Source: Candidatus Woesearchaeota archaeon
GTDB taxonomy: Archaea; Nanobdellota; Nanobdellia; Woesearchaeales; DSVV01
Reading direction: 5' to 3'
Assembly (NCBI GenBank): GCA_018657385.1
Contig: JABHXF010000023.1
Span: forward strand, 1,297 to 65,296
Length of the DNA: 64,000 nucleotides
Shown piece by piece: positions 6,731-31,696 of the stretch. The translations under genes were made by a program, and so were the position numbers. The notes under the pieces are model-generated. The model was given only the letters and a program-made list of their open reading frames with translations, had not been told where the DNA came from and made no database searches. Each line of letters starts with the position of its first letter. Position 1 is the first letter of the stretch.

Positions 6731-6816
6731 TCTAATTATTTTTAATAACCACTATTAAATAGATATAATAGTTAGTAAAATATATAAATCAATTTAATAA
6801 ATATACTATTATTACT

Positions 6817-9800: not shown

Positions 9801-12800
9801 AGGTGAATGTTATCCTAATAACTTATACAAACCAGATGAAGACCCATTAATTCCAAATGGTAATGGTTATCACAAAGTATTTTACTATTCAATTGATGAA
9901 GCAAAGAATATTGAAGAAGTTAAATCATTTTTATTTAATGTTGATATTAAACCACCTGAAATAACTATCACTCCTTATGTTACTAATGATTTATCAGCCC
10001 CTTATGATGATACACAAATTTTATTTTCAGTTGAATTAGATGAATCAGCAAAAGAATGTTATGATATCTTTGAAGATTATGTTGGTGTTAAAGAAATTAA
10101 TTATGAAGGTGGTCAATATTTCCAAGCTAAATATACAGGACTAAAAGATGCAAGTTATTTATACACTGTTGTTTGTACAGATTTCTTAGACAATACAATT
10201 AATAAATCTATTACTGTAAAAATTGATGCTGATCAGGAAATTCAATCACCTCAGCCAACAGGGGTATTAGATTATAGTCCTGTAAACTTAGAAATTATCA
10301 CATTAAAACAAGGTGATTGTAGGTTTGGCCAATCATCAACATTTGCTTTACTAACTTCATTTGGCGAACCAGAACAAATTAGTACAGGTCCTAGTTTATA
10401 CAAATACACTCATCAACTTTCATTAGAGGAACAAGGGTTACAGAAATATAGAGTTATGTGTCAATTTCCAGGGTTGTCTGGAGAAAGAGAAGATGAAATC
10501 CAATTTGTTCTAGACACAACTCCTCCTACAACTAGATTAACAGATCCAAAAGGTAATGATTTTAATACATCTCAATGGTATTCTGGAGAACATAGCGGAG
10601 ATATGGCTTATTTACAATGTGTAGATGAACCTGAGTTTGGTTTTGGTTGTGATGAATTACAAACACACTATTGTTTACAAAAAGGATCATTGAAATGTCC
10701 AACAAGATTAGAATTCCCTGGTCAAGAAAAAGATACTAGTTATCCATTATATACTCCAGTTAATATTCCTAATATTCCTGATGAACAATGGTTATGTTAT
10801 CATTCTGGAGAATTAACTGATAATAATATGGGTGGTTTAATAGAAGACAAAACTTGTGTTAAATTATTAATGGATTCTTCACAAGGTCCTGATATTAATG
10901 TACCATTATTAAAACAATATACTGATTTAACTAATCCTTTCTTTTATGGTTCTCCTGTGCTTGAACAAGGTATAACTGTTGCATTTTTATTAGAAGGGGA
11001 AGTAATTGATGGTGATGCAGCAACATCTCCTCCAGATAATAAATTAAATATTCAAGTTTATCCTTTATCTGAAGATTATTTAGTTGGTGTTGCATTATTA
11101 ACTGCCTTAACTGAAGAAATTGCACTATTAGAAGAAAACCAAGAATTTGAAATTGGTGATCTTGGTGCATCAGAATTATTTGAAGATATCCCTTCAAACA
11201 ATGCATTTTCTCAGGAAATTAATTTAATGCCTGGTCTGAATAAAATTTTATTAGAAGCAGTTGATAGATCTGGTGAATGGACAAGTAAAGAATATTATAT
11301 TATGGTTAGTCCATTTAATGGTGAGTTATTAGAAATTCTTGAACCACCTAAGGGTGTTTCCAAAGAAAAAGAATTTGATTTAATTGTAAAAACATCAGAT
11401 GATCTGCCACCACCAGAAAAATGTATGTTATCACAGAATAAAAATATAGGTTATAATTATGAAATGGAACAAATTGAACCAAGGAAATTTAAGAACCATT
11501 TTAATTTATCAGGAATGATTAGTGGTATTTATTATACTACTTTTATCAGATGTGATTTCCCTGGTGGTATATCTGATGAAACTTTTGTTGATATAATTTG
11601 GGATAATAGTGCACCTGCTATTGCAAAATTCTTTATTAATCCAAGTGATGGGAAGGAACCACCAGCTGTTGTTGAACCTCCTTTTGTAACAAACTTAACA
11701 GTTGTTACAGACGATAAAACAAGATGTAAATATTCAAAAACACCTGGGACTGATTATTTTTCAATGACCCCGTTTGATGATTATGAAACAAAAAATCTTA
11801 GTTATGTAAATGAACATAAACTAACTAATCTAATTGATGGTCAACAATATACTTATTATGTCAGGTGTGATAATGGTCCAACAGAACCAGCTTCAACTCA
11901 TATTTCTGAAGAATCAGTATTAACATTTATGGTTGATACAACTCAATTTACTGGCTTTGAATTAATTACTCCTGAAAAATTCACTAGCGACACTTCAATA
12001 GACTTTGAATTACATACTACAAAACAAGCAAGTGATTGTACTTTTGGTCCAGAAGAAGAAACAGTAGATCTTTACTTAATGGAAACTGTTGCATCTGGTG
12101 TGGATGCATTTAAAGTCCATTATGGTGGTCCAATCTCATTATTAGAAGGCGAACACACCTTTTATTTTAAATGTCTAACTTTATCAGAAGGCCATGTAAT
12201 GGATAATTACAAATTTTCAATTGATGTAACTCCACCATCACTTGCTATTAAAACAGATCCTTATACTTCTTCATTATCTACATTATCTGCGAGTTGGGAA
12301 GGTGAAGAAGAATATAGTGAAGTTGAAGAATATAATTATTCAATTGGTACTGAACCAGGTCTGGCAAATATTTATGAGTGGGATAATACTGCTGATTTAA
12401 ATGAAAAAGAAAACAATCTTAATCTTTCAAACGAAACAACTTATTATTGGAATGTAATTGCAATGAATTCTGTTGGATTATGGAGTGATATTGTAAGTAG
12501 TAATGGTACTTATGTTGATTCCACCTATAATCCTGGTTATGAAACTTTTGAAGATAATGTAGCAGTTTGCGCTAATAGTATTAAAGACTTAGGAGAAAGC
12601 GATCTTGATTGTGGTGGGAATTGTGGTAGTTGTAGTAATGGTAAAAATTGTGAAGTCAATAATGATTGTGTTAGCAGCCAATGTATTAGTGGGATTTGTG
12701 TCGGATCTTCATGTGATGATGGTATATTAAATCAACAAGAAGCAGATATTGATTGTGGTGGTCCATGTATTAGTTGTGATAATGGTATGGATTGCGATGT

Positions 12801-13497: not shown

Positions 13498-13522
13498 TTA
13501 AAATATATAGAAGGTGTAAAAC

Positions 13523-13993
13523 ATGAAATCACAAGTTCAACAAATGTTTTTTTATATTTTGGCATTATTTGTAATTGGAATGATTTTATTATTGGGGATT
13601 AAGTATGTTGGAAAAATAGTAGAACAAATAGAAACAATTGATTTAGTAGAATTTAAGACTAGCTTAATTGATGATTCCGATGTTATGTTATCTAAATATG
13701 GTAGTTGGCAGAAAAAGTCATATACTGTTCCAGAAGGTGTTAAAAAAGTATGTTTTTTCACGATTAATGAAGATCAACACCCCTGTGTTGGAGATTTAGA
13801 TTTTATCATGTGCGATGCATGGAACGACGGGACACAAAATGTCATGACTATTCCTTGGTCAGATACTTCAATAAACCTTACAAAGATGACTGTTGATAGT
13901 ACAAAAGATTATTTGTGTTTTGATGCTATTGACAGAAAAATTACAATTAGGATGACAGGTAAAGGTAATGGTGTTTTAATATCAGTGCCATAA
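13523..13993 (+). CDS. Prepilin-like protein (156 aa), candidate minor pilin
   Basis: The N-terminus is MKSQVQQMFFYILALFVIGMILLLG (K-S-Q followed by a hydrophobic helix). A GGTG Shine-Dalgarno lies 8 nt upstream. The gap to the giant ORF is only 25 nt. Confidence 0.7.
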   Translation: MKSQVQQMFFYILALFVIGMILLLGIKYVGKIVEQIETIDLVEFKTSLIDDSDVMLSKYGSWQKKSYTVPEGVKKVCFFTINEDQHPCVGDLDFIMCDAWNDGTQNVMTIPWSDTSINLTKMTVDSTKDYLCFDAIDRKITIRMTGKGNGVLISVP

Positions 13994-14106
13994 CCTTATT
14001 ATATGTAATTTAATTGTGCTTAATTTAATTATCTCTATTTTTGTCATGCACAATTTAATTATGTATTGTTATTAATATTATTAAGACTAGAAAAACTAAA
14101 TACAAA

Positions 14107-15189
14107 ATGAAGCATTCTAAAAAAGCGGTAATTGAAATGCAATTCAATTGGATATTTATCTTTGTAGTTGGCTCTGTTATTTTATTGTTTTTTGTGTTTA
14201 TTGGTAAATCATACATGGAAAGTTCCAATATGAAACTATCAGGTAAAATCCTATTTGAAATAGATTCAATTATGAAAGGTGCAAGTTCATCTTCAAAATC
14301 ATCATCTGAATTAGAAATACCAAAATTGGAGTTGGGATTTACTTGTTATCCTGAATGTAGTGAAGAAGGTTGTGATTCTGGGTTTGCTATTGGAAACACG
14401 GGAGTAAATAAACCAACTCCTCATGATATTATTTTTGCCCCAAGTGAAATCAAGAGTGATTTTTTATATACATGGACCTTAGATTGGACATCACCATTTA
14501 GAGTTGGAAATTTTCTTTATTTAACAAGTCCATCAATAAGGTATGTATTTGTTTATAATGAGGATTATTCTATGTCTAAAACCATGGCTGAAAAAATATA
14601 TAACTTATTTTTAGATAATGAATTTATTACTGTTGATTTATACAGCGAAGAAGAATTAATGGATGACTTTGAAGCCACTAATCATAAACATGTAAGATTT
14701 GTTTTCTTTTATACATTTGAAGATGATCTTGACTTAGATATTGGCAAATCTGATTTTGATTTAGTTATTTTTAGTGATCCTAATCCAAACTTTAATGGTC
14801 ATGTATTGTTTTTAAGTGAAGATATGGCTGCAGAAACAGGTGATTTTGATGATTCTGTTGGTTATTTTGGAAAAGAATCAATGGTCGGTGCAATTTTTTC
14901 AGAAAATCAAGATTTTTTCGTTTGTAATATGCATAAGGCATTTAATAGTTTAGAAAGAATATTTGGGATTTATAAGATAAAAGCCCTTTACTTAAAGACT
15001 CAAGCAGGTGCATGCGGTGGCATTTATGAAAATTTTGCTGCCTTTCCTCTTCCTGAAAATTTTCAATATCCAAGTAGTTTTGAAGAAGGTGATTATGAGA
15101 AAATATCTAGTTTATTAAAATCTATGTCATCATCAGCAGAAAAAGCAAACAAAAATGCAATATTTAACTCATGTCCTAGACTTTATTAA
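14107..15189 (+). CDS. Prepilin-like protein (360 aa), candidate minor pilin
   Basis: The N-terminus is MKHSKKAVIEMQFNWIFIFVVGSVILLFFVFIG (K-A-V-I-E followed by a hydrophobic helix). It is co-directional with the rest of the cluster. Confidence 0.65.
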   Translation: MKHSKKAVIEMQFNWIFIFVVGSVILLFFVFIGKSYMESSNMKLSGKILFEIDSIMKGASSSSKSSSELEIPKLELGFTCYPECSEEGCDSGFAIGNTGVNKPTPHDIIFAPSEIKSDFLYTWTLDWTSPFRVGNFLYLTSPSIRYVFVYNEDYSMSKTMAEKIYNLFLDNEFITVDLYSEEELMDDFEATNHKHVRFVFFYTFEDDLDLDIGKSDFDLVIFSDPNPNFNGHVLFLSEDMAAETGDFDDSVGYFGKESMVGAIFSENQDFFVCNMHKAFNSLERIFGIYKIKALYLKTQAGACGGIYENFAAFPLPENFQYPSSFEEGDYEKISSLLKSMSSSAEKANKNAIFNSCPRLY

Positions 15190-15229
15190 CTAATTAAATT
15201 ATATCACTCAAGAAAATAATACAAGAAAA

Positions 15230-15748
15230 ATGAAAAAAACAAAATCACAATTAAAAATAGGCGAATCAATAATGGTTTTAATTATTTTTTTCATTATTTT
15301 AATGGTTGGTTTAGTTTTTTATGCTAAAGTTCAAAGTCATATTGCGATTAAGGATGCAGAGGAATTTAATGCAAAAAGAACAATTGATATGGCATTATCA
15401 GTTAAGTTTATGCCTGAACTACAATGTACTGTACAATCAACAGAACAATTTGATTGTATTGATTTATTAAAAATAAATGCTTTTAAAGCAATTATGCTAA
15501 ACACTGAAAAACAAAGTTATAGAAGATATTATGCAAGGATGTTTCCCAATGCAAAAATTACTATCAAACAATCTTTTGTTCCATTTGGAGAAGGTATTGA
15601 AGGTGGAGAAATAATGTTATTTGATAATACATATGTTGATGAGGTAAATGCATCAGGTGTAATAAAAATGTCCATACCTGTAACTATTTTTGATCCAATT
15701 AGGGATTCAAACAGCTTTGGATTTATTGTACTTGATACTTATAGTTAA
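15230..15748 (+). CDS. Prepilin-like protein (172 aa), candidate minor pilin
   Basis: The N-terminus is MKKTKSQLKIGESIMVLIIFFIILMVGLVFYA. The gap to the previous ORF is 40 nt. Confidence 0.65.
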   Translation: MKKTKSQLKIGESIMVLIIFFIILMVGLVFYAKVQSHIAIKDAEEFNAKRTIDMALSVKFMPELQCTVQSTEQFDCIDLLKINAFKAIMLNTEKQSYRRYYARMFPNAKITIKQSFVPFGEGIEGGEIMLFDNTYVDEVNASGVIKMSIPVTIFDPIRDSNSFGFIVLDTYS

Positions 15749-15806
15749 TATTAATCTCCTAATCAATAATATACCAAACTTAATATATTAAACAAGAAAA
15801 TTAAAA

Positions 15807-16406
15807 ATGAATACAACAACAAAAGCACAAACAGAAATCATGGGGTTAATGATTATTGTAGTTATTATTACATTAATTATTTTGTTTGTTATTTCTGTTG
15901 TTTATTTTAAACCAGTAGACGATCCTTTAAACAGCTTTATCCAGAAAGATCTTTCAACAGGTATAATCAGTGCTATGTTAAAAACAGATTCAGGATGTAC
16001 AAAAGATACCACACTAGAAGATTTGTTTATAGACATTACTAAAACTCCACTTGGTACAATTCAATGTACTTCTGAATTAACTAATGTTTTAAGTGCAAGA
16101 TATCCAGATAATGAATTTTGTCAAGATATTATTATGAGCCGAGGTGCTCTAGAGTGTGGTGTTTCTCAAATCTTGTATACTTTACAAATAGACATTAATC
16201 GGCCATATCATTTTAAGGTCAAAAGTAATGATAATAAATTTCTAGAAACAGATGGTCTTATTCCTTTTCCACCAAGTAAATATTTAGAAGAAGAATTTTC
16301 AAGGGCAACAAGTGTTGATGTTACTCCATATTCATTACCTCTTTATCCTAGTATCGATGTTTTAGAAATTTGGTTGTGTATAGGTGGTGAATGTCCAAAT
16401 ATTTAA
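15807..16406 (+). CDS. Prepilin-like protein (199 aa), candidate minor pilin
   Basis: The N-terminus MNTTTKAQTEIMGLMIIVVIITLIILFVISVVYF carries K-A-Q-T-E. This resembles the K-G-Q-x-S-x-E start of euryarchaeal DUF361-type pilins. Confidence 0.7.
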   Translation: MNTTTKAQTEIMGLMIIVVIITLIILFVISVVYFKPVDDPLNSFIQKDLSTGIISAMLKTDSGCTKDTTLEDLFIDITKTPLGTIQCTSELTNVLSARYPDNEFCQDIIMSRGALECGVSQILYTLQIDINRPYHFKVKSNDNKFLETDGLIPFPPSKYLEEEFSRATSVDVTPYSLPLYPSIDVLEIWLCIGGECPNI

Positions 16407-17865: not shown

Positions 17866-18282
17866 TTATCTTTTTGCATTTATGCAAAGTTTTACACCAC
17901 ATGCTAAGCATTTTTTGAATAAATAGGTGCCTTCTCTTATTAATTTAGTCTCTGGTTTTCCACATTCTTCACAAAATACATATTCTACTGCATATTTTTC
18001 TATTTTTTCATTAATTCTACTTGCTGGAACTTTAGCACCAAAAATAATTCCATTTTTTTTCAAATCTCCTGGTGTTGCAAGTTCTTTTAGAATAAATTTA
18101 AACATATGTTCTACTGGCCTATTGAATGTTTGAGCAATTTGATGGAAATTACTAATGATTGTTGTATTTCCTTGTATGTGTCCTCTTACTTTTGGAACTT
18201 CAAATCTAGTTTTAATATCCCTTATTTCTGGCAATTTTTTATATGCGCCTTCTAACATATCTTCATAATTGTTTGAACTCAT
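17866..18282 (-). CDS. eif2b: Translation initiation factor aIF2 beta subunit
   Basis: Contains RFEVPKVRGHIQGNTTIISNFHQIAQTFNRPVEHMFKFILKELATPG and the C-terminal zinc ribbon CEECGKPET...CLACG. Confidence 0.9.
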   Translation of the reverse strand: MSSNNYEDMLEGAYKKLPEIRDIKTRFEVPKVRGHIQGNTTIISNFHQIAQTFNRPVEHMFKFILKELATPGDLKKNGIIFGAKVPASRINEKIEKYAVEYVFCEECGKPETKLIREGTYLFKKCLACGVKLCINAKR

Positions 18283-19208: not shown

Positions 19209-19330
19209 TCAATAAACTCTAACAAATTATTATAATCACCCATAAACTCTCATATACTATTCTAAACACTCATGGGCCATCATAATCTCATATTAATACG
19301 TCTATGGATATACATAATAGAAATTGAATA

Positions 19331-19340
19331 AATATATATA
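19331..19340 (+). promoter_or_regulatory. TATA-like box for the 19363 ORF
   Basis: AATATATATA is centred about 27 nt upstream of the ATG at 19363. Confidence 0.45.
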
Positions 19341-19362
19341 TCCTAATGGGATTTATTTTTTT

Positions 19363-20676
19363 ATGTTAGATAAAGCTAAAATTATTCAATTAATAGGTCT
19401 AAAGGGGTTAGTTATTCCTAAGGATTTAATGAGTGAGTTTAATGCAGATACATTTATTATTGGGGCAACTTTATCTGAATTAGTAAGGGATGGTAAGCTT
19501 AAATTAACAACTGTAAAAATAGGTGGTAGTCCTTTTTATTATCTTCCAAATCAAATCGCTAAACTACAGGAATTAAATAAATATCTAAATGAAAAAGATC
19601 AGAGGGCATTTAATCTATTAAAAGAGAAGAAAGTACTAAAAGATTCTGAATTAACCCCTATACAGAGGGTATCAATGAGAGCTATTAAAGATTTTGCTCA
19701 ACCTATTGAAGTAAAAACACAAGAATCAACTGAAATATTCTGGAGATGGTATTTATTAACTCATCAAGAATGTATAGACTTAATTAAAGAAAATTATTTT
19801 CAAGAACAAAAGCAGCCAATAGTGCCATTACAATCAACTCCACAACAAATTCCTGTTAAAACAACCTCTTTACAACATACTCCACACACTACTTCAACTC
19901 CCCCAACCTCCCAAATTTCTCAAACTCCTTCAACTAATTTAACATCTTCAACTTTTCAAACAACTTCAAATGTTCAAACCCCTCCAACCCAAAAAAATTC
20001 AATACACCAAACACAGATTAACCAACCACTAACCAAACACCAACCAATCAAACAACAAGCAACATCTTCTCCTTTATTAACTCAACAACAACCAAATATA
20101 CAATCAGGAACTAAAGGGCATCTAGAAACCAAAGAACAATCTGAAATAAAACCAACTATTAAGGAGAAAATAAAAGCAGTTTTTGATGATATGACAAAAC
20201 AAAAAAAAGAAACCAAAGAAGTCATTAAACCTAAACAAGAAATAAAAAAACCCAAGCGTGAAACAAAGCCACCTCAAATTAAAAAAGTAAAGTCAGAAAC
20301 AAAAGATTCTAATCAGCCAGAAACAACAGATTCTCATCAAAAAACACTTTTTGAGGAACCAACTGGTGAGTTATATAAGAAAACAAAAAAATATTTTAAT
20401 AGAAACAACATTAAGTTAAATAATATAGAAGTTATACGTAAAGATAAGGATATGGATTGTATTGTTGAGATTCCATCTCCAGTTGGTGTTGTTGAATATT
20501 ATTGCAAAATTAAATCAAAGAAAAAATGTAATGATGGTGATCTTGCAACTGCTTACGTTAACGCACAGATGAAAAATTTACCTGCTTTGTTCATAACAAC
20601 TGGTGAAGTTACAAAAAAAGCACAAGAAATGTTAAAAACAAAATTTAAAAATATGAAAATCATAAATCTGAGGTGA
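19363..20676 (+). CDS. wHTH-like N-domain, ~200-aa low-complexity linker and C-terminal Mrr-like (PD-(D/E)xK) domain protein
   Basis: The ATG at 19363 is preferred over the TTG at 19324 because of the TATA spacing. The linker is first T/S/P/Q-rich and then K/E-rich. The C-terminus DMDCIVEIPSPVGVVEYYCKIKSKKKCNDGDLATAYVNAQMKNLPALFITTGEVTKKAQEML resembles the Mrr_cat pattern (D...E/Q-x-K...fiTt..ft..A). Confidence 0.5.
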   Translation: MLDKAKIIQLIGLKGLVIPKDLMSEFNADTFIIGATLSELVRDGKLKLTTVKIGGSPFYYLPNQIAKLQELNKYLNEKDQRAFNLLKEKKVLKDSELTPIQRVSMRAIKDFAQPIEVKTQESTEIFWRWYLLTHQECIDLIKENYFQEQKQPIVPLQSTPQQIPVKTTSLQHTPHTTSTPPTSQISQTPSTNLTSSTFQTTSNVQTPPTQKNSIHQTQINQPLTKHQPIKQQATSSPLLTQQQPNIQSGTKGHLETKEQSEIKPTIKEKIKAVFDDMTKQKKETKEVIKPKQEIKKPKRETKPPQIKKVKSETKDSNQPETTDSHQKTLFEEPTGELYKKTKKYFNRNNIKLNNIEVIRKDKDMDCIVEIPSPVGVVEYYCKIKSKKKCNDGDLATAYVNAQMKNLPALFITTGEVTKKAQEMLKTKFKNMKIINLR

Positions 20677-21434
20677 TATTAATGAATAAAAAAAATATGA
20701 AATATTTAATTGTCATTATTGTTGTTATTATGTTATTATTTATTGGTTGTGCAACCAAACAATATGAATGTCCTAATGGGGATGTTGTAGAGGATATTAC
20801 AACTTGTAATATCAATGGGGAACTTGATGAAACTTCGTCTGAATCAACTACACAACAACAAGAACAATCAACAACACCAGCTGAAACAACTATTTCAGAA
20901 ACAAATAATGGTAATCAATTAACTGATTCTCTTGTAGAAGAACCAATAACAAAAACAATTGGTATTCCACAACTATCATTAACTCAAACACAAAAAGATA
21001 AATTAAATGAATTATTAAATAATAAAAAGTCAATTATTTACCCGCCTATGTTGGGTGTTAATGATCAACTTCCTATTGGTGGCACATATACTTTTGCATA
21101 TGGTATAAAGAATCCAACAGTACTATCAAAAGAGTTTTTTTATTCAATAAAACTTATTGATTCTAAAACTGAATCTTTAAGTAATGCTGGTGCAGATGAT
21201 ACTGTTCTTGATTGGTTTTTACCAAATACTGATTTAGATGCAACATATACTTTAGGGAAAAATGAGATTGTTTATGTCCCTCTTATTGTAGTAATTGGAG
21301 ACAAGATGAATAAAGATGGTAAAAAAACAGTTGATGGTACATATGACTTCAGGGTTACCTCAGAAACTATTGATGGTGTATTTACTGACGACCATCATTA
21401 TACTGATTTTGTTATAAGGGTATCTAATGATTAA
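20673..21434 (+). CDS. Lipobox-containing secreted protein (253 aa)
   Basis: The signal MKYLIVIIVVIMLLFIGC carries an F-I-G-C lipobox. The start is either GTG at 20673, overlapping the previous stop, or ATG at 20682. An S/T/Q/E linker is followed by a beta-rich domain. Confidence 0.6.
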   Translation: MILMNKKNMKYLIVIIVVIMLLFIGCATKQYECPNGDVVEDITTCNINGELDETSSESTTQQQEQSTTPAETTISETNNGNQLTDSLVEEPITKTIGIPQLSLTQTQKDKLNELLNNKKSIIYPPMLGVNDQLPIGGTYTFAYGIKNPTVLSKEFFYSIKLIDSKTESLSNAGADDTVLDWFLPNTDLDATYTLGKNEIVYVPLIVVIGDKMNKDGKKTVDGTYDFRVTSETIDGVFTDDHHYTDFVIRVSND

Positions 21435-21486: not shown

Positions 21487-22518
21487 ATGGGCATAGCAAT
21501 AAAAGATATTTTAATTTCAAAAGAGATTTCCATTCCTGATCTTAGAAATAAAACTCTTGCAGTTGATTCATTTAATATGTTATATCAATTTCTAACTACA
21601 ATTAGGGCGAGAGATGGTAGTTTATTAACAAATCAAAATGGTGATGTTACTTCACATCTTATTGGGTTGTTTTCTAGGGTAACAAATATGATGGAACAAG
21701 GTTTAAAGTTAGCTTTTGTTTTTGATGGTACGCCTCCACAATTAAAAAGACATGAACAACAAAGAAGGGCAGAACTAAAAAAAGAAGCAAAAAAAGAGTA
21801 TGAAATTGCAAAACAGCGAGAAGATATTGATGGGATGCGTAAATATGCATCAAGGACAACAAAATTAACAAAAGACATGGTTAGCGATGCAAAAGAATTA
21901 ATTTCTTATCTTGGTCTACCAATTATTCAAGCAAAATCAGAAGGGGAAGCACAAGCAGCTTATTTAGTTAAACAAAAACATGCCTTTGCAACTATCAGTC
22001 AAGATTTTGATACATTGTTACATGGTTCTGATTATCTTGTTAGGAATCTATCAATTGCAGGAAAACGAAAAAGAACAAATAAGCTTGGTTATATTACTGT
22101 TAAACCTGAATTAATTAATCTTTCTGATAATCTTAATCACTTAGGTGTTGATCAAGACCAACTAATTGCATTATCAATGTTAATTGGAACAGATTATAAT
22201 ATTGGTGGTATAAAAGGTATTGGTCCTAAAAAAGCAATTACACTTGTCAAACAACATAATAAAGATTACAATGAAATGTTTAAATCAGTTAAATGGAATG
22301 ATTATTTTGATTATGATTGGGAAGATGTTTTTTATTTAATCAAAAATATTCCAATTGAAAAAAACTTTGATATTAAATTTACTTCTCCAGATTTTAATAA
22401 GATTACTGAATTTTTATGTGAAAAACATGGTTTTGAGAAAGAAAGAGTAGAAAAAACCTTAAATAAAATTGCTAATTCAAAAGATATTAAACAAAAAGGC
22501 TTGGGTGACTTTTTCTAA
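21487..22518 (+). CDS. fen: Flap endonuclease 1
   Basis: Contains MGIAIKDIL...LAVDSFNMLYQFLTTIRARDGSLLTNQNGDVTSHLIGLFSRV...AFVFDGTPPQLK and a C-terminal PIP-like GLGDFF. Confidence 0.92.
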   Translation: MGIAIKDILISKEISIPDLRNKTLAVDSFNMLYQFLTTIRARDGSLLTNQNGDVTSHLIGLFSRVTNMMEQGLKLAFVFDGTPPQLKRHEQQRRAELKKEAKKEYEIAKQREDIDGMRKYASRTTKLTKDMVSDAKELISYLGLPIIQAKSEGEAQAAYLVKQKHAFATISQDFDTLLHGSDYLVRNLSIAGKRKRTNKLGYITVKPELINLSDNLNHLGVDQDQLIALSMLIGTDYNIGGIKGIGPKKAITLVKQHNKDYNEMFKSVKWNDYFDYDWEDVFYLIKNIPIEKNFDIKFTSPDFNKITEFLCEKHGFEKERVEKTLNKIANSKDIKQKGLGDFF

Positions 22519-22677
22519 ACAAACATGTCGGAATGACTCCTTTTTATTATATTATTGAATAAACCATATCAAAACCTATATATAATAGTAAATAAATGAA
22601 TCTATTTATATAGCTAAAACTATATATAAAAGATAATATATAATTTAAATTAAAAATACATTAAAAACATAAAAAAA

Positions 22678-25600
22678 GTGGTGATTATGGCTGAAGACCC
22701 TCAATCAGGAAGATGGCAGACTTTTAAACAAGGTTTTTCTAATTATAGGGCAGAAAAAAAGCAAGCAAAAAATGCAAATAAAGCAAGTGCTGCTAAGATT
22801 AAGGCTGATATGGATGGAGTCAAAGTTGCAAGGATGGATGAAAACGAAAGAAGACAATTACTACAACAACATCAAGAAGATTTAGACAAATTACAGCCAA
22901 AACGAGCATTTCTAAAAAATCTGTCAGGAAAAGGGGGCACAGCTACCAAAGCAGCCACTCTAGGAATAGGTGCTTGGTTGGGTAGTAAGTTTAAGCGAAA
23001 TTCTGAACCTAAGAAATTTCATGATACTGACAAAGTTTGGAAATGGAGATTTTTTTCTTATATTATTTTATGTATTGTTTGGCATTATGGTCTCTTAATA
23101 CAACTAGAAATCCCACCATTTGGAAAAGCTATGTTAAATATTGTTTTTGCGTTAATCACATATTTCTGGGCTGTTCCACAAGAAGAAAGAACAAGTAATC
23201 GCATATGGGAATTTTTAGTAGTTATTTTCATACTTTATTATTCAGTTGAAGTATTAGGAGTTATGTTAGTTGGAATAGCACCTGCTTCAATTGGTGCATT
23301 TATTCATGGTTGGTTATTAAATCCTTTATTGACACCATGGTGGCTTTTTTATGCACTCTTTGTTAGAGTTCAGGGCAGAGCATGGTTAGGTGATATACCT
23401 ACTATTGTTGTTCTTGTTCTTTATATTACAGCAGGGTTAGGTGTTGGTACTTCTCTTGCTGGTACACCCTTACAAAGTCAATTGTCAGAAAAGGGGTTTA
23501 GTCTTGATAGGACACATATTGAGAATTTTAATGATTTTTTAAGCAGAGCTGCTGATTTCTGGAAATATATTTGGGATAATATTGTTAAATCATTCAAGGG
23601 ATTTAAACTATTTTGGTATAAACGTATTGATATAGCCACAGGTGGAGATTATTATACAGGAAGGGTTGAACAAGCAGAAGATGAACCATTGGGTGTAACA
23701 ATAGAAAATGTTAAAACAGCTGATTATGAATTTGAGACTGATGAAAAAATAGTTGTTTATGGTACTATCAAGGCACATACATTAGATGATGGTATTAGAA
23801 TAAAACCTGGTTGTTTTTTAGGTTATAAAAGAGATTATGAAGAAAAATATATTGAAGGGAATGTAAATGTTGGTCCTTCTAACGATTATTTAGTATTTGA
23901 TATGGATGAACAAGATATGGATTGTATTTTACCTCCAACAGCAGAAGTTAAGGCCATATTAGAAAAATCTAAAACAGTTACATTAACTGCAGAATTTAAT
24001 TTTGAAACAATGGCATATCTTAAAACTTATTTCATGTATCAAGATAGATTAAGAAGTTTACAAAGACAAGGTCTTGATCCATTAAATGAATTTGGTATTA
24101 AAGATAATAATCCTACTGCGGTATTTACTAATGGGCCTGTAATGCTTGGTATTGGTACAAAAAAACCACCTTATGGTGTTGCAATTGCAGGTCTTAGTGG
24201 TTCTTCAGATAATTTGTTAAGGGTTGGAGTAACAGTTGATAATAATTATGGTTGGAAAGGTAAGATTAAAAAAATTAATCAAGTAATAATGGTTGTTCCA
24301 GAAGAATTAGAAATTGTTAATTCTGCTTGTAGTCACGTATTTAATAAATATGCTGACTCTACAAACCTAGACTCCTGTGTTAAAGATTATATTGATTATA
24401 ACAGCAGACCATTTATTGAATGTGCAGACAAGGTATGGCAGGAAGGAGGAGATTACTTTGATAAATATGATAAAGAACATTTAGCACAAGCAAAGATTAA
24501 TAATAATGTTAAGACTTGTGTTAGGAAAGTTTGTACAAAAGAGTATGAGGGTTATATTGGCTATGCATTAAATACTGCCTTTTCTAGTAAAGGTTTAGAA
24601 GATATTGAAAATTATAAAACCTTTAGTTGTAACTTTAAAGTAAGACCAGGTACAGAACAAGATTTATTAGGGACAGCACCTGTTTCTGTAAGGTATTTAA
24701 GGGCTAAGGTTAGATATGATTATGAAATTGAAAAGTCCACAAGTGTTAGAATAAAAAAAGACTATAATAAATATGGTTCAGGTATTATGGACCATTCACA
24801 ATCTTTGTATAGTGATCCGCAAAAAATATATGAAACAGTTGGTCAAAAAACATGGAAATCTATTAATAATAATCCGCATGTAGCTGCTGTTGAACCTTGT
24901 TTAGCTATTGCATTACTAATTGAGGCAAGTGGTGGCCAAGAATATTATAATAAAAATGGTCAACAAGGATTATTTACTTTAAGTCCTAAACTAACTAAAA
25001 AAATAGCAGAAAAATTAGGTGATACAAGCCAAAACTTAATGGATATTGATACAAATATTAAGTATGGTATGGAATTATTAAATGATTTAAAAACAGGAAG
25101 TGTAAATTATTTAGGTGCGGACAATACAATTATTCCTGCAAATGAAAATGAGTTGATGATTCTCTTTAAGGAAGCAGTTACAAATGATCAAGTTAAATAT
25201 GATTCAATTAAACCAAGTGTAAAGGAATCATGCAATCAAGAAAAAGCATATCTTTGTAAAGAAGATCCCTTTTATTCTAAATATCATGGTTATGAATTAA
25301 CAATTGAATCTTTAAAAGATTATTGTAAAAAACCTGGAACACAAGCATTATTAGAGAAGGTAAAAGATTTTGATTTAATTAAGGAAGAAAATCCTAATTT
25401 TTGGTCTCCATTTAAGTCAATTAAGGTTACAAAAGAAACAAAAGATGTAAACCCAAGTTTAGATGAAGATTATGAAGTCAAAGTTACAAAAACATTTAGC
25501 GAAGATAAGAAAAAGATTCAAGTTGGGGTAAAATTAATAAAAGATAATAAAGAAAAATTCTCTAAATCTTTTAATCTTAATCAAGAAAATTCTGCAGATA

Positions 25601-25980
25601 CTGCTTGGTATTATGGTGATAAATATCCTTTTATTAGGGCAAGATTAAAATCTGTAAATTTTGAAACAGGTGATGTTGTTATAGATGTTCAAGATTTTGA
25701 ATTTACTATAAAAAAAGTTGAAATACCTTACAATCCAACATCTCTCAAGAAAGATGTATGGGTTGATAGTTCAACTGAAGAAACAATTGTAAGGGCTCTA
25801 TTTAATAAACCTACAAATACTTTGGTATTTTACGATAATGGAAATAATCAACTTTGCACAATCAAATTGACAACTTCAAAAACATGTGCAAATTTACCAG
25901 AAATAAAAGTATATCAACTTAATGATGTTAATGATGACTGGTTTGAAGGTTATGTTGAGTTTAATCCTCAAAAAGAATAA
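22678..25980 (+). CDS. Polytopic membrane protein (1100 aa) with a ~830-aa ectodomain carrying a lytic-transglycosylase-like segment
   Basis: The N-terminal ~120 aa are basic and presumably cytoplasmic. A hydrophobic block of about 5-6 helices lies at ~23040-23470. A large hydrophilic C-terminal region follows. The start is GTG at 22678 or ATG at 22687. Confidence 0.75.
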   Translation: MVIMAEDPQSGRWQTFKQGFSNYRAEKKQAKNANKASAAKIKADMDGVKVARMDENERRQLLQQHQEDLDKLQPKRAFLKNLSGKGGTATKAATLGIGAWLGSKFKRNSEPKKFHDTDKVWKWRFFSYIILCIVWHYGLLIQLEIPPFGKAMLNIVFALITYFWAVPQEERTSNRIWEFLVVIFILYYSVEVLGVMLVGIAPASIGAFIHGWLLNPLLTPWWLFYALFVRVQGRAWLGDIPTIVVLVLYITAGLGVGTSLAGTPLQSQLSEKGFSLDRTHIENFNDFLSRAADFWKYIWDNIVKSFKGFKLFWYKRIDIATGGDYYTGRVEQAEDEPLGVTIENVKTADYEFETDEKIVVYGTIKAHTLDDGIRIKPGCFLGYKRDYEEKYIEGNVNVGPSNDYLVFDMDEQDMDCILPPTAEVKAILEKSKTVTLTAEFNFETMAYLKTYFMYQDRLRSLQRQGLDPLNEFGIKDNNPTAVFTNGPVMLGIGTKKPPYGVAIAGLSGSSDNLLRVGVTVDNNYGWKGKIKKINQVIMVVPEELEIVNSACSHVFNKYADSTNLDSCVKDYIDYNSRPFIECADKVWQEGGDYFDKYDKEHLAQAKINNNVKTCVRKVCTKEYEGYIGYALNTAFSSKGLEDIENYKTFSCNFKVRPGTEQDLLGTAPVSVRYLRAKVRYDYEIEKSTSVRIKKDYNKYGSGIMDHSQSLYSDPQKIYETVGQKTWKSINNNPHVAAVEPCLAIALLIEASGGQEYYNKNGQQGLFTLSPKLTKKIAEKLGDTSQNLMDIDTNIKYGMELLNDLKTGSVNYLGADNTIIPANENELMILFKEAVTNDQVKYDSIKPSVKESCNQEKAYLCKEDPFYSKYHGYELTIESLKDYCKKPGTQALLEKVKDFDLIKEENPNFWSPFKSIKVTKETKDVNPSLDEDYEVKVTKTFSEDKKKIQVGVKLIKDNKEKFSKSFNLNQENSADTAWYYGDKYPFIRARLKSVNFETGDVVIDVQDFEFTIKKVEIPYNPTSLKKDVWVDSSTEETIVRALFNKPTNTLVFYDNGNNQLCTIKLTTSKTCANLPEIKVYQLNDVNDDWFEGYVEFNPQKE
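24881..25100 (+). other. SLT/lysozyme-like motif region within the 1100-aa protein
   Basis: CLAIALLIEASGGQEYYNKNGQQGLFTLSPKLTKKIAEKLG...NLMDIDTNIKYGMELLNDL aligns by eye to the family-1 lytic transglycosylase core (..ES....G..GLMQ........D...TNI..G..YL). The candidate catalytic Glu codon is at 24922-24924. Confidence 0.45.
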
Positions 25981-26019
25981 TAATTAAAATTCAAGTAAAT
26001 AATAAAGAAGATAAATAAG

Positions 26020-27057
26020 ATGGAAAAAAATAAATCAAACAAAAAAGCAATTATAATTGGAGTTTCACAACTCTTACTAGTCTTTATTTTATTATTCATT
26101 ACATCATGTGGTGATGGTGGAGAAACACACACAATTGATTTAGATTTTCATAAGGGTACAAAAGGTGTTGAGTTTGATGTTTTAGGAGTCATGGGTGAGA
26201 TTTACGAAGATACTGCATTTAAAATTATAATTAATGTTTTTAATAATGGTGCTTATGATCTTCCTGAAGCAAATGGTGGTTATGTTAATTTAAATCTTGA
26301 AGAAGATTATATGTGTCTTTCTGATGGCCAGAATTGTTTAACCACACAAAATGCAGGTGCTGCTATTAAACCATTAGGATACCTTAAAGGGAAATCTATT
26401 TTTAATCCATCTGGTGATTTTGAGATTCTTGAATATTATGTTCATGTTAAAGATATTGATAAACAAAGTTTTCAACATACAAGTAATGTTGGTATAAGTT
26501 TATGTTACCAATATCAAACAGATTTAATTACAGATATTTGTATTGATCCTTATTTTTATGAGCAATCAACAATAGAAAAACCATGTGTTGTTAAGGACTT
26601 AACTTTTTCAGGACAAGGTGCCCCATTAGTTGTTACAAAAATTGAAAACAAAATGTTATCTGATGGGAAAGATAGTGTAAGGCCAATGTTTATTATCCAT
26701 GTTTCTAAAACAGGAGATGGAGAAATAATTAATAAGGAAATGGTTAACAAAGTGTGTACAGCAGATCCTCTTGGACCAAATGCTTTTAATGTTGTTCATC
26801 TTCGTGAGCTAGAATTTATGGTTGGTAATACTCTCTATAAACACGACATAAACAATGAAAATTCAAATCTTAAATGTAATTTTTTAAATAAGAAAAGTGA
26901 AACAAAACTTAATCAAGGTAAGGCAAAAATAAAATGCACTGCAATAAAACCAATCAATAAAGATAGTGGTACTTTTTCAACACAATTAAAAATGATATTT
27001 GATTATGGGTATACTTATTCAAAATCAAAATCAGTTGTAATAAAACGTTTATATTAA
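26020..27057 (+). CDS. Lipobox surface protein, paralog 1 of 3 (345 aa)
   Basis: The signal LLVFILLFITSC carries a lipobox. Motifs are shared with the next two ORFs (IIINVFNNGAYDLP; SLCYQYQTDLITDICIDP; SGQGAPLVVTKIE; FIIHVSKTGDGEII). Confidence 0.7.
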   Translation: MEKNKSNKKAIIIGVSQLLLVFILLFITSCGDGGETHTIDLDFHKGTKGVEFDVLGVMGEIYEDTAFKIIINVFNNGAYDLPEANGGYVNLNLEEDYMCLSDGQNCLTTQNAGAAIKPLGYLKGKSIFNPSGDFEILEYYVHVKDIDKQSFQHTSNVGISLCYQYQTDLITDICIDPYFYEQSTIEKPCVVKDLTFSGQGAPLVVTKIENKMLSDGKDSVRPMFIIHVSKTGDGEIINKEMVNKVCTADPLGPNAFNVVHLRELEFMVGNTLYKHDINNENSNLKCNFLNKKSETKLNQGKAKIKCTAIKPINKDSGTFSTQLKMIFDYGYTYSKSKSVVIKRLY

Positions 27058-27106
27058 TTAAATATACCAAATTAAAATTCAAGCAATTCGAAAAAACATA
27101 ATAAAA

Positions 27107-28045
27107 ATGAAGTCAAATAATATCAATTCCACAATTAAAAGATACAATAAATTATTATTGTTATTACTTTTATTAGTTTCAATTTTAATTATTTCATGTA
27201 GTGGCTCTCCTAAACAAGGTGACCTTATGCATGGTAGTAAAGGTATTGAATTAGAAGTGAAATATTTCAAACCAAATCACCAGTTTGTACATGGTGAGTT
27301 TATGAACTTATTTATTGAGGTTATGAACAAAGGAGTTTATGATAACCCTACCGGGTTTATTAAAATAATTGGCCATGATTCAAATGCCATTTCTTTTAAA
27401 GAAACAAAGAAAGATCTTCCATCCCTAGTTGGTAAAAAACCATATATACCAGAAGGGGATTCATTTATTTTAAAATTTGAAGAAACTGCCCCATTAAATG
27501 TTCCTTATGGTTCATCTCATCAATCAAATTTATTAATTTCTGCTTGTTATAATTATCAAACAAATGCAATTGTTACTGTATGTATTCCTACACTTAAAGA
27601 ATATGCAGAAGGTTCACCTGTATGTAAGACTGGAGCAAAAAGCTTATCTTCTCAGGGTGCACCAGTAGCTGTTACATATATTGAACCAAGTGTTGGGGCA
27701 GATGAATTACAATATATTATTCATGTTTCTAATGTTGGAGATGGGGTAATTATTAAAGAGGATATGTTAAGTAATTGCCCATCTGAAATCGGTCCTTCAG
27801 ATATTGATGAAGTCAGAATTGATGTACAAATCTCAGCTTTAGGAACAGCAACATGTACAAATAATAATCTAATCAAGTTATATGATGGTAACGGTGCAAC
27901 AATTTGTAGAATTAAGAAAGGTACAGGTGATGTTAGCTATGAAACTCAAATGGGTATCTTATTAAATTATGCATATACTTCTTCAATAAAAGAAAGTATT
28001 AACATAGTAGATCCATTTTATACTGGTAAGGAGAAATATGAATGA
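27107..28045 (+). CDS. Lipobox surface protein, paralog 2 of 3 (312 aa)
   Basis: The signal LLLVSILIISC carries a lipobox. Motifs: FIEVMNKGVYDNP; SACYNYQTNAIVTVCIP; SSQGAPVAVTYIE; YIIHVSNVGDGVII. Confidence 0.7.
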   Translation: MKSNNINSTIKRYNKLLLLLLLLVSILIISCSGSPKQGDLMHGSKGIELEVKYFKPNHQFVHGEFMNLFIEVMNKGVYDNPTGFIKIIGHDSNAISFKETKKDLPSLVGKKPYIPEGDSFILKFEETAPLNVPYGSSHQSNLLISACYNYQTNAIVTVCIPTLKEYAEGSPVCKTGAKSLSSQGAPVAVTYIEPSVGADELQYIIHVSNVGDGVIIKEDMLSNCPSEIGPSDIDEVRIDVQISALGTATCTNNNLIKLYDGNGATICRIKKGTGDVSYETQMGILLNYAYTSSIKESINIVDPFYTGKEKYE

Positions 28046-28256
28046 TTGAAAACCAAGAAAATCCAGTAAAATAATCAAAATTGCCTAATATAACTAAAAT
28101 TAATCAATAATTAACCAAAAACTATATATATAGTTTAACATAATATTTATATACTCACATATAAGATAACATAAATATAATAAAAGTATAATAGTGATAT
28201 TATTTAAAATAACATAACTAAAAAATAATTAAAAAAGAAAAAAGAGGAGGATATAT

Positions 28257-29192
28257 ATGAAAATAATAAAATATTTATTACTAATTTTAGTTTTAATGTC
28301 TTTATTGTTTGTTAGTTGTACAGGCAATAGAAGAGAATCAGGTGTTGCAGCTCCATTCTATGGTGGGAGTGAAGGTTTAATTGGGGAATTTGAAGATATA
28401 GGTTCTTTATTAAGTCAATCTGGTTATCCTGAGATTTGGGAAGACCAAGGTATCCCTATTCAAGTAAGAATTTTTAATAGAGGTGAATATACTCTTCCTT
28501 CAAATTCAGTTCAGTTTAAAATTAAAGGAATTAAAATTCCTGAAGATTTTCAAGGTGCAGAGGCAATGAAGACAAATCTTAATGAAATTGAAAAAGTTTC
28601 TGAGTATCTTACAGAAGGTGGCGATGAATTAGTTGACTTTGGTGAGGCGTATTATGTTAAGGGTGTTAAAGGCACATTTTATGATGCTAATGTTTTTATT
28701 GAATATACTTATCCATATGAACAAACTGTTATTGTTCCTAAAGTTTGTTTTAAAGGAGATCCTTATGATGAAACTATTTGTGAAGTTGATGAATCTAAAC
28801 AAGCCTATATCTCTGGCGGACCATTTCAAATGGGTTCAGTAGTTCAAAGACCTGCTGGTAAAGGTAGAATTAGTCTTGAAATCCCTATTAGAAATGTAGG
28901 TGGTGGAAAAGCTAAGAAAGAAGATAGCATGTTTGAAGACTTCTCTCCTTTATATGATGAGCTAATTATGGAAGTTCCAGATGGTTGGGAATGCTCAGCA
29001 AAAGGTGGCGGCGATACAGTTAGAGTTAATAGAAATGGTGAAACTGTTATCAGATGTAAATATGGTTTTTATGGTGCACCAATCCCAGAAACAGATGTTT
29101 ATACAAGTGCATTTGATTTAAAAGTTTATTACATCTATTGGGACTTTGTATCGCAAACAGTTAGGATCAGGGAAAACCCAGAATTAAATTAA
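28257..29192 (+). CDS. Lipobox surface protein, divergent paralog 3 of 3 (311 aa)
   Basis: The signal LVLMSLLFVSC carries a lipobox. A GAGGAGG SD is present. Motifs: IQVRIFNRGEYTLP; IEYTYPYEQTVIVPKVCF; ISGGPFQMGSVVQ; LEIPIRNVGGGKA. Confidence 0.65.
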   Translation: MKIIKYLLLILVLMSLLFVSCTGNRRESGVAAPFYGGSEGLIGEFEDIGSLLSQSGYPEIWEDQGIPIQVRIFNRGEYTLPSNSVQFKIKGIKIPEDFQGAEAMKTNLNEIEKVSEYLTEGGDELVDFGEAYYVKGVKGTFYDANVFIEYTYPYEQTVIVPKVCFKGDPYDETICEVDESKQAYISGGPFQMGSVVQRPAGKGRISLEIPIRNVGGGKAKKEDSMFEDFSPLYDELIMEVPDGWECSAKGGGDTVRVNRNGETVIRCKYGFYGAPIPETDVYTSAFDLKVYYIYWDFVSQTVRIRENPELN

Positions 29193-30721: not shown

Positions 30722-31696
30722 TTATTTCAAACTACACAAAGTAAAATTAGCCAACAATGCCTCTAATTGTAGATATTCATCACTACCTTCAGTCATTCTA
30801 AACTCTATTTCTCCACATTTATCAATTAACTTAACTTTCATTCTATCATCTATATCTAATTCTAAAACTTGTCTCTGTATTTGTTTAATTATATCTTGTC
30901 CACTAAGTCCATATCTTAACATTGCATCTAACAATTTATTTCTGGCATCAATAAATTTATTATTAATTGCTAATTGCAATATTTCTTCAACTTCTTTTGG
31001 TTTAGCAACAGATGCCATTGAAAACACTAATTCTTCTGTTATTTTTGAGTCAAGTGCAGCACAACTTTGTAAAATGTTTTCCATCCTTCTACAATCTCCT
31101 CCACTTATCTCAAATAGAGCTTGTTTTGCATTTTCTTCCATATCTAGATCTTCTGCTTTTGCAATACTTTCAATTAATACAAAAATATCTTCTTTTGCTA
31201 ATGGTTTAAATCTAAATAAAGTACATCTACTCTGAATAGGATCAATAATTTTTGAGGAATAATTATTAGATAGAATAAATCTACATGTTTGTGTATAATT
31301 CTCCATAGTTCTTCTTAATGCTTGTTGTGCTTCTTTTGTTAAAGCATCACTTTCATCTAAGAAAATAACTTTAAATGGTACATTACCAAGGGCTCTAGTT
31401 CTTGCAAAGTCCTTTACTTTATTTCTAACAACATCAATACCTCTTTCATCTGATGCATTTAATTCAAGAAAGTTTTGTTTCCAGTTCTCTCCAAACATTT
31501 GTTTAGCTACAACAATTGCTAATGTTGATTTTCCTGTTCCAGCAGGTCCTGAAAACATTAAATGAGGCATATTTCCTTTTTTAATAAATGCCTTAATCTT
31601 TCTTTTAATATCTTCCTGGCCTTTAATCTCATCAAATGTACTAGGTCTATACTTTTCAATCCATATTGCTGTATTTTGCTTGTTTGGTGGATTCAT
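30722..31696 (-). CDS. rfcS: Replication factor C small subunit
   Basis: Contains WIEKYRPSTFDEIKGQE..., the Walker A motif SGPAGTGKST, DESDALT, and the SRC motif in IDPIQSRCTLFRF. Confidence 0.93.
   Translation of the reverse strand: MNPPNKQNTAIWIEKYRPSTFDEIKGQEDIKRKIKAFIKKGNMPHLMFSGPAGTGKSTLAIVVAKQMFGENWKQNFLELNASDERGIDVVRNKVKDFARTRALGNVPFKVIFLDESDALTKEAQQALRRTMENYTQTCRFILSNNYSSKIIDPIQSRCTLFRFKPLAKEDIFVLIESIAKAEDLDMEENAKQALFEISGGDCRRMENILQSCAALDSKITEELVFSMASVAKPKEVEEILQLAINNKFIDARNKLLDAMLRYGLSGQDIIKQIQRQVLELDIDDRMKVKLIDKCGEIEFRMTEGSDEYLQLEALLANFTLCSLK

Follow-up and report, generated by a model that had tools for sequence, protein, structure and literature searches.

Woesearchaeota are tiny, probably symbiotic archaea that are among the most widespread uncultured archaea. 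GTDB places them in Nanoarchaeota. Here we describe a module of a large membrane protein (the platform), three lipoproteins (lp1, lp2, and lp3), and a fifth protein (G5), encoded in a 64-kb stretch of Woesearchaeotal contig JABHXF010000023.1 (the window). Castelle et al. 2021 (PMC8204110) and Vigneron et al. 2022 (PMC9723730) reported large SLT/GH23 proteins in Woesearchaeota and Pacearchaeota and proposed that they attach to, bind, or degrade bacterial walls. The idea recurs in later papers. Lipoproteins have been reported to be prevalent in DPANN archaea, in which the lipidation enzyme AliA and predicted lipoproteins were found (PMC12462473). The platform protein of the window is very likely one of the reported SLT proteins or a close relative. 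As far as the accessible text of PMC8204110 and PMC9723730 goes, the lineage is the same, the protein is likewise a large secreted or membrane SLT protein, and the proposed target is the same. However, that text treats the SLT protein as a single enzyme and mentions no SLT-less core, polytopic anchor, lipoproteins, G5, or domain swapping. A limited literature search returned no account of the operon, the lipoprotein triplet, the prepilin-signal partner, or payload swapping. The SLT-bearing component has been noted before, and an operon of this composition is undescribed in the literature searched. An earlier note, made from the sequence alone, had likewise recognized no described system of such composition, and none was found in the family libraries.

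Bacterial family-1 lytic transglycosylases (Slt70, MltE, MltC, and LtgA; PF01464, GH23) resemble amino acids (aa) 714 to 900 of the platform protein in profile (7e-11) and in fold. In contrast to the Slt70-type enzymes, the window domain has Ala for Glu and sits in an archaeal protein of ~1,100 aa that is mostly unrelated to anything bacterial. The membrane-anchored cell wall hydrolases (PrgK and TcpG type) that serve conjugation and type IV secretion in Gram-positive bacteria and the SLT-bearing tape-measure or tail proteins of phages (PDB 9b45 gp41, a profile hit) also combine a tethered scaffold with interchangeable hydrolases (SLT, NlpC/P60/CHAP, or glucosaminidase) that breach the wall locally. 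This likeness is one of working principle, taken from general knowledge, with no homology beyond the hydrolase domain. Unlike these systems, the module is without ATPases, coupling proteins, or tail genes and is chromosomal, core, and archaeal. Archaeal S-layer and anchor systems (SlaA/SlaB and lipid-anchored S-layer glycoproteins) are, like the module, membrane tethered, rich in beta-sandwiches, stabilized by Cys or glycans, and co-encoded, whereas the module has five distinct subunits, three kinds of anchor, and peptidoglycan-hydrolase payloads. The PDB and Foldseek searches gave no sequence or specific fold match between module proteins and solved S-layer proteins.

From domain content and synteny we infer the function of the module, including complex formation, surface exposure, a peptidoglycan target, and a role in cell contact. 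We tentatively favor a heteromeric, membrane-tethered surface scaffold that would present a peptidoglycan-directed payload to bacterial partners, the payload being catalytically dead in the window organism.

Gene order and the fifth gene

The platform gene (22678 to 25980) and the genes for lp1 (26020 to 27057), lp2 (27107 to 28045), and lp3 (28257 to 29192) all lie on the plus strand, with intergenic gaps of 39, 49, and 211 nucleotides (nt), as the earlier note had described. We compared the contigs of six homologs (L001 to L006) and the loci from a scan of one genome per GTDB species (64 loci); open reading frames (ORFs) were called in all loci and then searched with a hidden Markov model (HMM) for each module part. 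Synteny in relatives had been set beforehand as a test, and the module recurred in 67 nonduplicate loci and was not confined to the window genome. On the contigs of the six homologs, the platform gene was followed by three genes for ~310 to 360 aa and then by the RFC small-subunit gene (RFC-S) on the opposite strand, despite differing upstream genes. Across the larger set, the platform gene was followed on the same strand by at least three lipoprotein genes in 40 of the 46 loci with at least 3.3 kb of downstream sequence, and the remaining six had one or two. This gene order, kept despite differing flanks, agrees with the proposal that the genes form a functional unit and are not isolated genes. 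In 41 of 70 loci, RFC-S is the neighbor of the module, and a gene for an 87-aa PRC-barrel protein usually comes next; Pelota lies on the other side in most lineages, so that the module is placed between two housekeeping genes. The Pelota/RFC-S neighborhood looks like ancestral synteny and not a functional link.

The four-gene composition given in the earlier note stood, but the note had overlooked the SLT/GH23-like domain of the platform and a fifth gene, G5. Of the 55 loci with enough upstream sequence, 51 have G5 (~390 aa) immediately before the platform gene (two with overlapping ORFs counted); the four loci without an adjacent G5 are the window and its closest relatives. The window copy (39852 to 41534, minus strand) was found by tblastn (5e-67), its match being the gene that immediately precedes the platform gene in L003, L004, and L006, and it is displaced by 10.7 kb from the other four genes. 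Gene order across these loci indicates that G5 is the fifth gene of the ancestral operon and that the module is an ancient, vertically inherited five-gene operon of Woesearchaeota. The operon is specific to this group as far as record titles show, and close homologs of the module proteins all come from metagenome-assembled genomes (MAGs) of Candidatus Woesearchaeota or Nanoarchaeota.

Some record titles differ. A complete module was present on 27 GTDB-representative contigs titled "uncultured Methanosarcinales archaeon" (including L013, L015, L016, L022 to L025, L027, and L030), and a complete Woesearchaeal module was present on a contig of 58.6% GC titled "Candidatus Binatia bacterium" (L068). 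These contigs are probably mislabeled or misbinned. Two contigs of MAG CAZRPY01 (L052 and L060) each carry a platform-family gene, and some genomes may hold two copies of the module.

The best-conserved part of G5 is its N terminus. The consensus of 52 sequences is M(K/R)K[AG]Q[GS]-G.NAAILVAIIAGLIILYILFLPP, with the consensus running on to LPPxER, and the window sequence is RKKAQS-AAGAAGLIALIAVFIVLYLLLL. This is a prepilin-type (class III-like) signal, recognized as a short basic leader with [KR][GA] and then Q, followed by a hydrophobic helix of ~20 residues; cleavage is a prediction only. The ectodomain that follows is beta rich. Beyond the N terminus, no family scored above threshold. Subthreshold matches to CBM35, beta-galactosidase all-beta domains (BetaGal_ABD2), a PL4 carbohydrate-binding module (CBM)-like domain, and the CBM of a GH26 mannanase, given by several members, only hint at a lectin/CBM-like jelly roll. 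The window G5 also has a Cys-rich insert at aa ~334 to 474, with apparently two copies of a CP..C...D.DCCF...YWC-like motif and 22 Cys in the whole protein. The insert is missing from the ~390-aa G5 of most relatives, and similarly long G5 proteins occur in L011, L012, L013, and L016.

An AT-rich 13-mer, AAAACTATATATA, occurs exactly twice in the window, against a chance expectation of 0.03 matches. One copy (22616 to 22628, plus strand) is 59 nt upstream of the platform ATG, and the other (28118 to 28130, plus strand) sits 127 nt before lp3, within the 211-nt gap. L001, L002, and L009 share a conserved related element, AACCAAAAAYTATATATAT, ahead of lp3. The two copies are probably archaeal promoters with a transcription factor B recognition element (BRE) and TATA box; the arrangement suggests two transcription units, platform-lp1-lp2 and lp3, the latter with a putative separate promoter.

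Architecture of the lipoproteins and the platform

The proteins lp1 (345 aa, lipobox ITSC), lp2 (312 aa, IISC), and lp3 (311 aa, FVSC) are tandem beta-sandwich proteins, of which lp3 is the most divergent and the nearest to the platform core. A GAGGAGG Shine-Dalgarno-like site precedes the lp3 ATG. Lipoboxes were recognized as a hydrophobic signal core followed by [LVI][ASTVI][GAS]C; all three proteins named in the earlier note carry one, with the Cys invariant in alignment A1, and lipidation itself is predicted. A hydrophobic stretch followed by Cys, mostly in the form xAGC, xSGC, or xxSC, is kept in 146 of 149 lipoprotein homologs. The lipobox Cys, two NxG/GxG motifs, two Cys pairs, and a terminal YxY are invariant in the 18-sequence lipoprotein alignment (columns N74/G76, G211/G213, C159/C173, and C250/C267), and the shared NxG motifs and Cys pairs of the earlier note thus fall in invariant columns.

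The three lipoproteins are paralogs, as had been proposed, with a similarity far above chance. BLASTP gave 3e-22 for lp1 and lp2 (28% identity over the full length), 7e-7 for lp1 and lp3, and 2e-6 for lp2 and lp3, and hhalign comparisons of the three profiles (41 to 57 sequences per paralog) gave 4e-71, 1e-36, and 1e-44. Position-specific HMMs assigned all 149 lipoproteins to their own position in a twofold cross-validation (training on half of the loci), indicating that lp1, lp2, and lp3 are ancient orthologous groups in fixed order and are not interchangeable. This assignment places the triplication before the radiation. Copies that cannot replace one another are what is usually seen among the distinct subunits of a single assembly.

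The AlphaFold2 model of lp2 (predicted local distance difference test [pLDDT] score, 85.8) shows a signal helix and then two beta-sandwich domains, each closed by a long hairpin. Of the CARDB-type fold suggested earlier, a generic Ig-like beta-sandwich is retained in this model, but membership in CARDB is not, as Pfam CARDB (PF07705) gave no hit at an E value of ≤1 for lp1, lp2, or lp3.

Two further observations concern individual lipoproteins. A database copy of lp2 (P0017) has 272 aa, 40 residues short of the 312-aa ORF. The difference is what a start called at the internal Met41 would give, with loss of the conserved signal peptide and lipobox; truncated start calls of this kind would mask the lipoprotein nature of the family in automated surveys. 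Some orthologs are long (407 to 822 aa, compared with the usual 300 to 360 aa), namely, L018:10181-12649, lp1/lp2 of L013 and L016, lp3 of L025, and L011:5401-6768, and probably carry extra domains.

The longest platform ORF opens at GTG 22678 and has the 1,100 aa given in the earlier note; the probable start at ATG 22687, however, yields 1,097 aa. This start is favored by a 100% identical database protein of 1,097 aa (P0001) and by the N termini of homologs, and a GGTGAT Shine-Dalgarno-like site lies upstream of it. The product is a polytopic membrane protein with a large ectodomain. Its basic, helical N-terminal region (aa 4 to 122; 22687 to 23043) is predicted to be cytoplasmic from its charge and the AlphaFold2 model: K plus R number 24 and D plus E number 14 in aa 1 to 118, and helices are modeled at aa 11 to 72. 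Conservation of this region among homologs is weak. A transmembrane (TM) block of ~5 helices with a conserved NPxLTPWW motif follows (aa 123 to 261; 23044 to 23460), assigned from hydropathy and loop charges. It has four strong hydrophobic segments (aa 125 to 143, 148 to 166, 180 to 198, and 243 to 261) and a fifth, weaker, aromatic-rich segment at aa ~205 to 228, with Arg in the predicted cytoplasmic loops. Because of these segments, the basic N terminus, and the loop Arg residues, the N terminus is predicted to be inside and ~840 aa outside the cell, in agreement with the five to six helices and ~830-aa exterior first proposed. Every complete homolog has a polytopic hydrophobic block ahead of the core domain, with a sequence that diverges fast; the crude hydropathy counter overcounts TM helices in homologs and was used only for the presence of the block. 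Presenilin matches to the block (E values of 0.03 to 0.09, profile against PDB) were regarded as noise.

The TM block bears on a role in uptake or transport, in which the lipoproteins would bind substrates or lipids and, as shuttles, pass cargo such as host lipids, muropeptides, or glycans to the polytopic protein. A polytopic membrane protein beside lipid-anchored extracellular proteins recalls binding-protein-dependent uptake, the conserved NPxLTPWW motif lies within the block, and DPANN archaea depend on scavenged building blocks. However, no ATPase or recognizable permease domain was found in or beside the module across the 67 loci, the module itself has no ATP-binding cassette, and the lipoproteins are tandem beta-sandwiches (the lp2 model is all beta) and do not have the alpha/beta fold of solute-binding proteins. 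The TM block is also the least conserved part of the platform, and its HMM fails in many loci in which the core scores ≤1e-80, which fits an anchor better than a channel. We consider uptake quite improbable.

The family-defining part of the platform is the core ectodomain (aa 336 to 694; 23683 to 24759, plus strand), which consists of a Cys-rich helical insert and two beta-sandwich-like halves with a long hairpin at the end of each. Most invariant columns of the platform alignment (A2, 16 homologs) fall in the core, the ectodomain has conserved Cys pairs, and the core has no match in Pfam or PDB. An exhaustive HMMER search of the representative library gave a platform family of 764 representatives (50% identity clusters) at an E value of ≤1e-30. 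Protein length in the family ranges from ~490 to ~1,180 aa, and the polytopic block and core are the constant part. The AlphaFold2 model (pLDDT of 72 overall and about 80 to 90 in the ectodomain) runs from a cytoplasmic helix through a TM block of low confidence and a long juxtamembrane helix to the beta-rich core (aa 339 to 690), a helical SLT domain (aa 714 to 898), and a beta domain (aa 913 to 1095). The conserved module parts have no match in Pfam, NCBIfam, PHROGs, PADLOC, or PDB, and searches of NCBIfam, PHROGs, and PADLOC with all five proteins gave no meaningful hit.

The platform core and the lipoproteins probably share ancestry. Platform aa 333 to 699 aligned collinearly with lp3, lp1, and lp2 over their full mature length in hhalign (P = 0.0015, 0.013, and 0.047, respectively), a comparison that is suggestive only with 40 to 67 sequences per profile; with the first small alignments it was not significant (E values of 0.12 to 0.31). 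The alignments pair ACYNYxTxA with AxFNFETMA and C...LDYGY with C...RYDYE, and the strand order agrees between the AlphaFold2 models of lp2 and the core. The score of lp3 against the core was 32.4, compared with 13.6 ± 1.7 for column shuffles, and none of 60 column shuffles reached the real score for either lp1 or lp3. Against a common ancestry for all four, the unrelated-looking G5 scored 24 against the core, near the 26 of lp1. Because of this, only the lp3 result is clearly above the beta-rich background.

The C-terminal payload and the proposed function

The only Pfam domain in the platform protein of the window is SLT (PF01464; aa 738 to 806, E value of 6.9e-5, 22.8 bits against a gathering score of 21.3). 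It belongs to an SLT/GH23 lytic-transglycosylase-like domain at aa 714 to 900 (24817 to 25377, plus strand). The A2 family profile matched Slt70-, LtgA-, and MltE-type chains in the PDB at 7e-11 and no other PDB entries. Single-sequence PDB searches with the platform protein or its SLT region gave no hits; the domain is seen by profiles only. The domain is helical over aa 714 to 898 in the AlphaFold2 model (pLDDT of ~80 to 88), and Foldseek matched it to MltE with a probability of 1.0 and a target-normalized TM-score of ~0.5. The structural search proposed in the earlier note was informative for this part, but for lp2 and the rest of the platform it returned no specific relative. A C-terminal all-beta domain follows (aa 905 to 1100; 25390 to 25977, plus strand; AlphaFold2 strands at aa 913 to 1095, pLDDT of ~85 to 90) and is restricted to the SLT-bearing long platform forms.

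The catalytic Glu of the window domain is replaced by Ala750. The catalytic column holds A, T, or I in the window's clade (the window and P0002 to P0007) and precedes the invariant S751-G752-G753; E749, beside Ala750, is not conserved among orthologs. In the HMMER alignment to the LtgA-type chain 5mpq, the "t" of the clade sits on the Glu of QES. PDB lists MltE E64Q as an inactive mutant. More distant members (P0008 to P0011, P0014, and nine genome loci) have canonical ES, GLMQ, and YNxG motifs. Because the catalytic glutamate is lost, the domain would bind rather than cleave in the window organism, and we read it as a putative glycan-binding pseudo-enzyme.

The C-terminal extension of the platform varies across the family. 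In 53 extensions, Pfam recognized SLT in 17, GH73 glucosaminidase in 3 (for example, L034 at 3.7e-17), NlpC/P60 in 1, a Lysozyme_like domain in 1, and fn3 in 3; the canonical ES...G[LIV][ML]Q motif is kept in nine extensions. These assignments indicate that domains from no fewer than three unrelated families of peptidoglycan hydrolase were recruited to this one position of the platform. Such repeated recruitment suggests that the distal end of the platform meets the bacterial cell wall, and it is the strongest functional clue.

The five products are all predicted to be membrane anchored and extracellular because of the lipoboxes, the K[AG]Q signal of G5, the platform topology, and the conserved Cys pairs of the ectodomains. 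In the surface scaffold that we favor, the platform would be anchored by ~5 helices, with its conserved ectodomain of two beta-sandwich domains outside. The lipid-anchored lp1, lp2, and lp3 would have the same two-domain build, with probable common ancestry with the platform ectodomain, and G5 would be held by its prepilin-type N-terminal helix. The five proteins would assemble into one heteromeric scaffold, and the outer C-terminal end of the platform would show a lineage-variable payload, most often one predicted to cleave peptidoglycan (SLT/GH23, GH73, NlpC/P60, or lysozyme-like). To our knowledge, archaea are without peptidoglycan, and the most likely target would therefore be the walls of bacterial partners or prey. 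The assembly would bind these walls and, in many lineages, cut them locally; with the payload of the window organism, glycan strands would be held and not cleaved.

Several observations weigh against this proposal. We know of no Woesearchaeon that has been cultured with a bacterial host. Besides the missing catalytic Glu, the window domain has GLFTL for GLMQ, and AYNxG is absent. About 14 of the 67 platform proteins have no sizeable C-terminal extension, and ~30 of the 53 extensions have no recognizable domain, which suggests a conserved core function independent of peptidoglycan hydrolysis. Foldseek searches with the lp2 model (PDB and BFVD) and, beyond the SLT part, with the platform model (PDB) found generic Ig-like multidomain ectoproteins only, with TM-scores of ~0.2; for lp2 these included complement MG domains, integrin legs, adhesins, WxLIP, transglutaminase barrels, and phage tail proteins. 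The hosts of cultivated DPANN archaea are all archaeal, according to the abstract of PMC11291902.

The main rival is a scaffold of the cell's own envelope, in which the platform, lp1 to lp3, and G5 would form an S-layer-like or pseudo-periplasmic wall and the hydrolases would be optional additions for antibacterial defense or muropeptide scavenging. The module is present in all 67 related loci examined, among housekeeping genes, and its core is conserved with or without a payload. Membrane-anchored tandem Ig-like beta-sandwiches are, from general knowledge, typical of archaeal surface-layer proteins, and the Foldseek matches are of this Ig-like kind. However, known archaeal S-layers consist of one or two abundant proteins and not, as far as general knowledge goes, of a 5-TM protein with three paralogs and a prepilin-signal protein. 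The occurrence of at least three unrelated peptidoglycan-hydrolase families at one position also argues that the distal end meets bacterial walls. We regard a wall scaffold of this kind as possible but rather unlikely.

Less likely again, in our judgment, is a dedicated host-contact organelle. In such an organelle, four homologous modules of two domains each, one TM anchored and three lipid anchored, would make up a pseudo-tetrameric ring or stalk with a lectin-like, pilin-anchored cap and an exchangeable hydrolase tip that opens the peptidoglycan of docked bacteria.

Genomic setting and implications

The window, from a Woesearchaeotal genome of 29% GC, has a GC content of 27 to 32% and contains archaeal housekeeping genes, including those for eIF2-beta (17866 to 18282, minus strand), FEN1 (21487 to 22518), and RFC-S (30722 to 31696, minus strand), and a ribosomal protein cluster from 42.6 kb. 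In an Rfam scan of the whole window, no RNA family reached the gathering threshold.

The earlier note had also suggested a link to a pilin-like locus at 0.2 to 16.8 kb, which would make the module part of a type IV pilus, filament, or secretion system. G5 shares a K[AS]Q and hydrophobic-helix N terminus with small pilin-like ORFs at 4268, 13523, 15230, and 15807, and a TM-anchored cell wall hydrolase is, from general knowledge, a feature of Gram-positive conjugation systems. However, Pfam searches of the module and its immediate neighbors (window and L001 to L006) found no assembly ATPase, PilB/PilC, FlaI/FlaJ, or VirB4/VirD4. The pilin-locus proteins are absent within 7 to 10 kb of the module in 70 related loci, except for one weak partial match, and in the closest relatives the matching upstream site is occupied by PolD genes. 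The suggested link failed at this point, and a pilus or secretion function, to which we would give very little credence, is largely refuted by the lack of synteny.

The pilin-like locus itself (198 to 16406) contains three giant secreted ORFs of 1,357, 820, and 2,226 aa, and the 820-aa ORF (at 4268) itself has the K[AS]Q motif. The small ORFs at 13523, 15230, and 15807 have class III signal-like N termini with K[AS]Q and a hydrophobic helix, whereas the one at 14107 starts with a hydrophobic helix and has no clear K[AS]Q. Pfam gives no signal in the locus other than a weak hint of an EF-hand in the 2,226-aa protein, which is also the protein with the weak partial match near the module, in L012.

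Two further ORFs of the window deserve mention. A 253-aa protein (20673 to 21434) has a lipobox, LLFIGC, and a Ser/Thr/Gln-rich linker and, among the fetched loci, is confined to the window's clade (L001, L002, and the duplicates L008 and L010); it was rejected as a fourth lipoprotein paralog (BLASTP E value of 0.33). A 450-aa protein (19324 to 20676) begins with a conserved domain, continues with a long low-complexity linker rich in Q, T, and P, and gives a weak Mrr_cat-like match at the C terminus (E value of 0.009); besides the window's clade, L012 and L063 keep it. It is not homologous to G5 and was rejected as the equivalent of the gene that precedes the platform gene in distant relatives.

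The module is core to its lineage, vertically inherited, and, as predicted, wholly extracellular, and four of its five proteins fall outside described families. With these properties and the repeated recruitment of hydrolases, the vague idea that some Woesearchaeota may attack bacteria becomes testable, with five proteins as targets. The payload type (active SLT, GH73, NlpC/P60, catalytically dead SLT, or none) may predict lifestyle from genomes alone. If the module were a host-contact organelle, it would be the first molecular apparatus for episymbiosis or predation of an archaeon on bacteria, and it would provide a genomic marker of DPANN lineages with bacterial rather than archaeal hosts.

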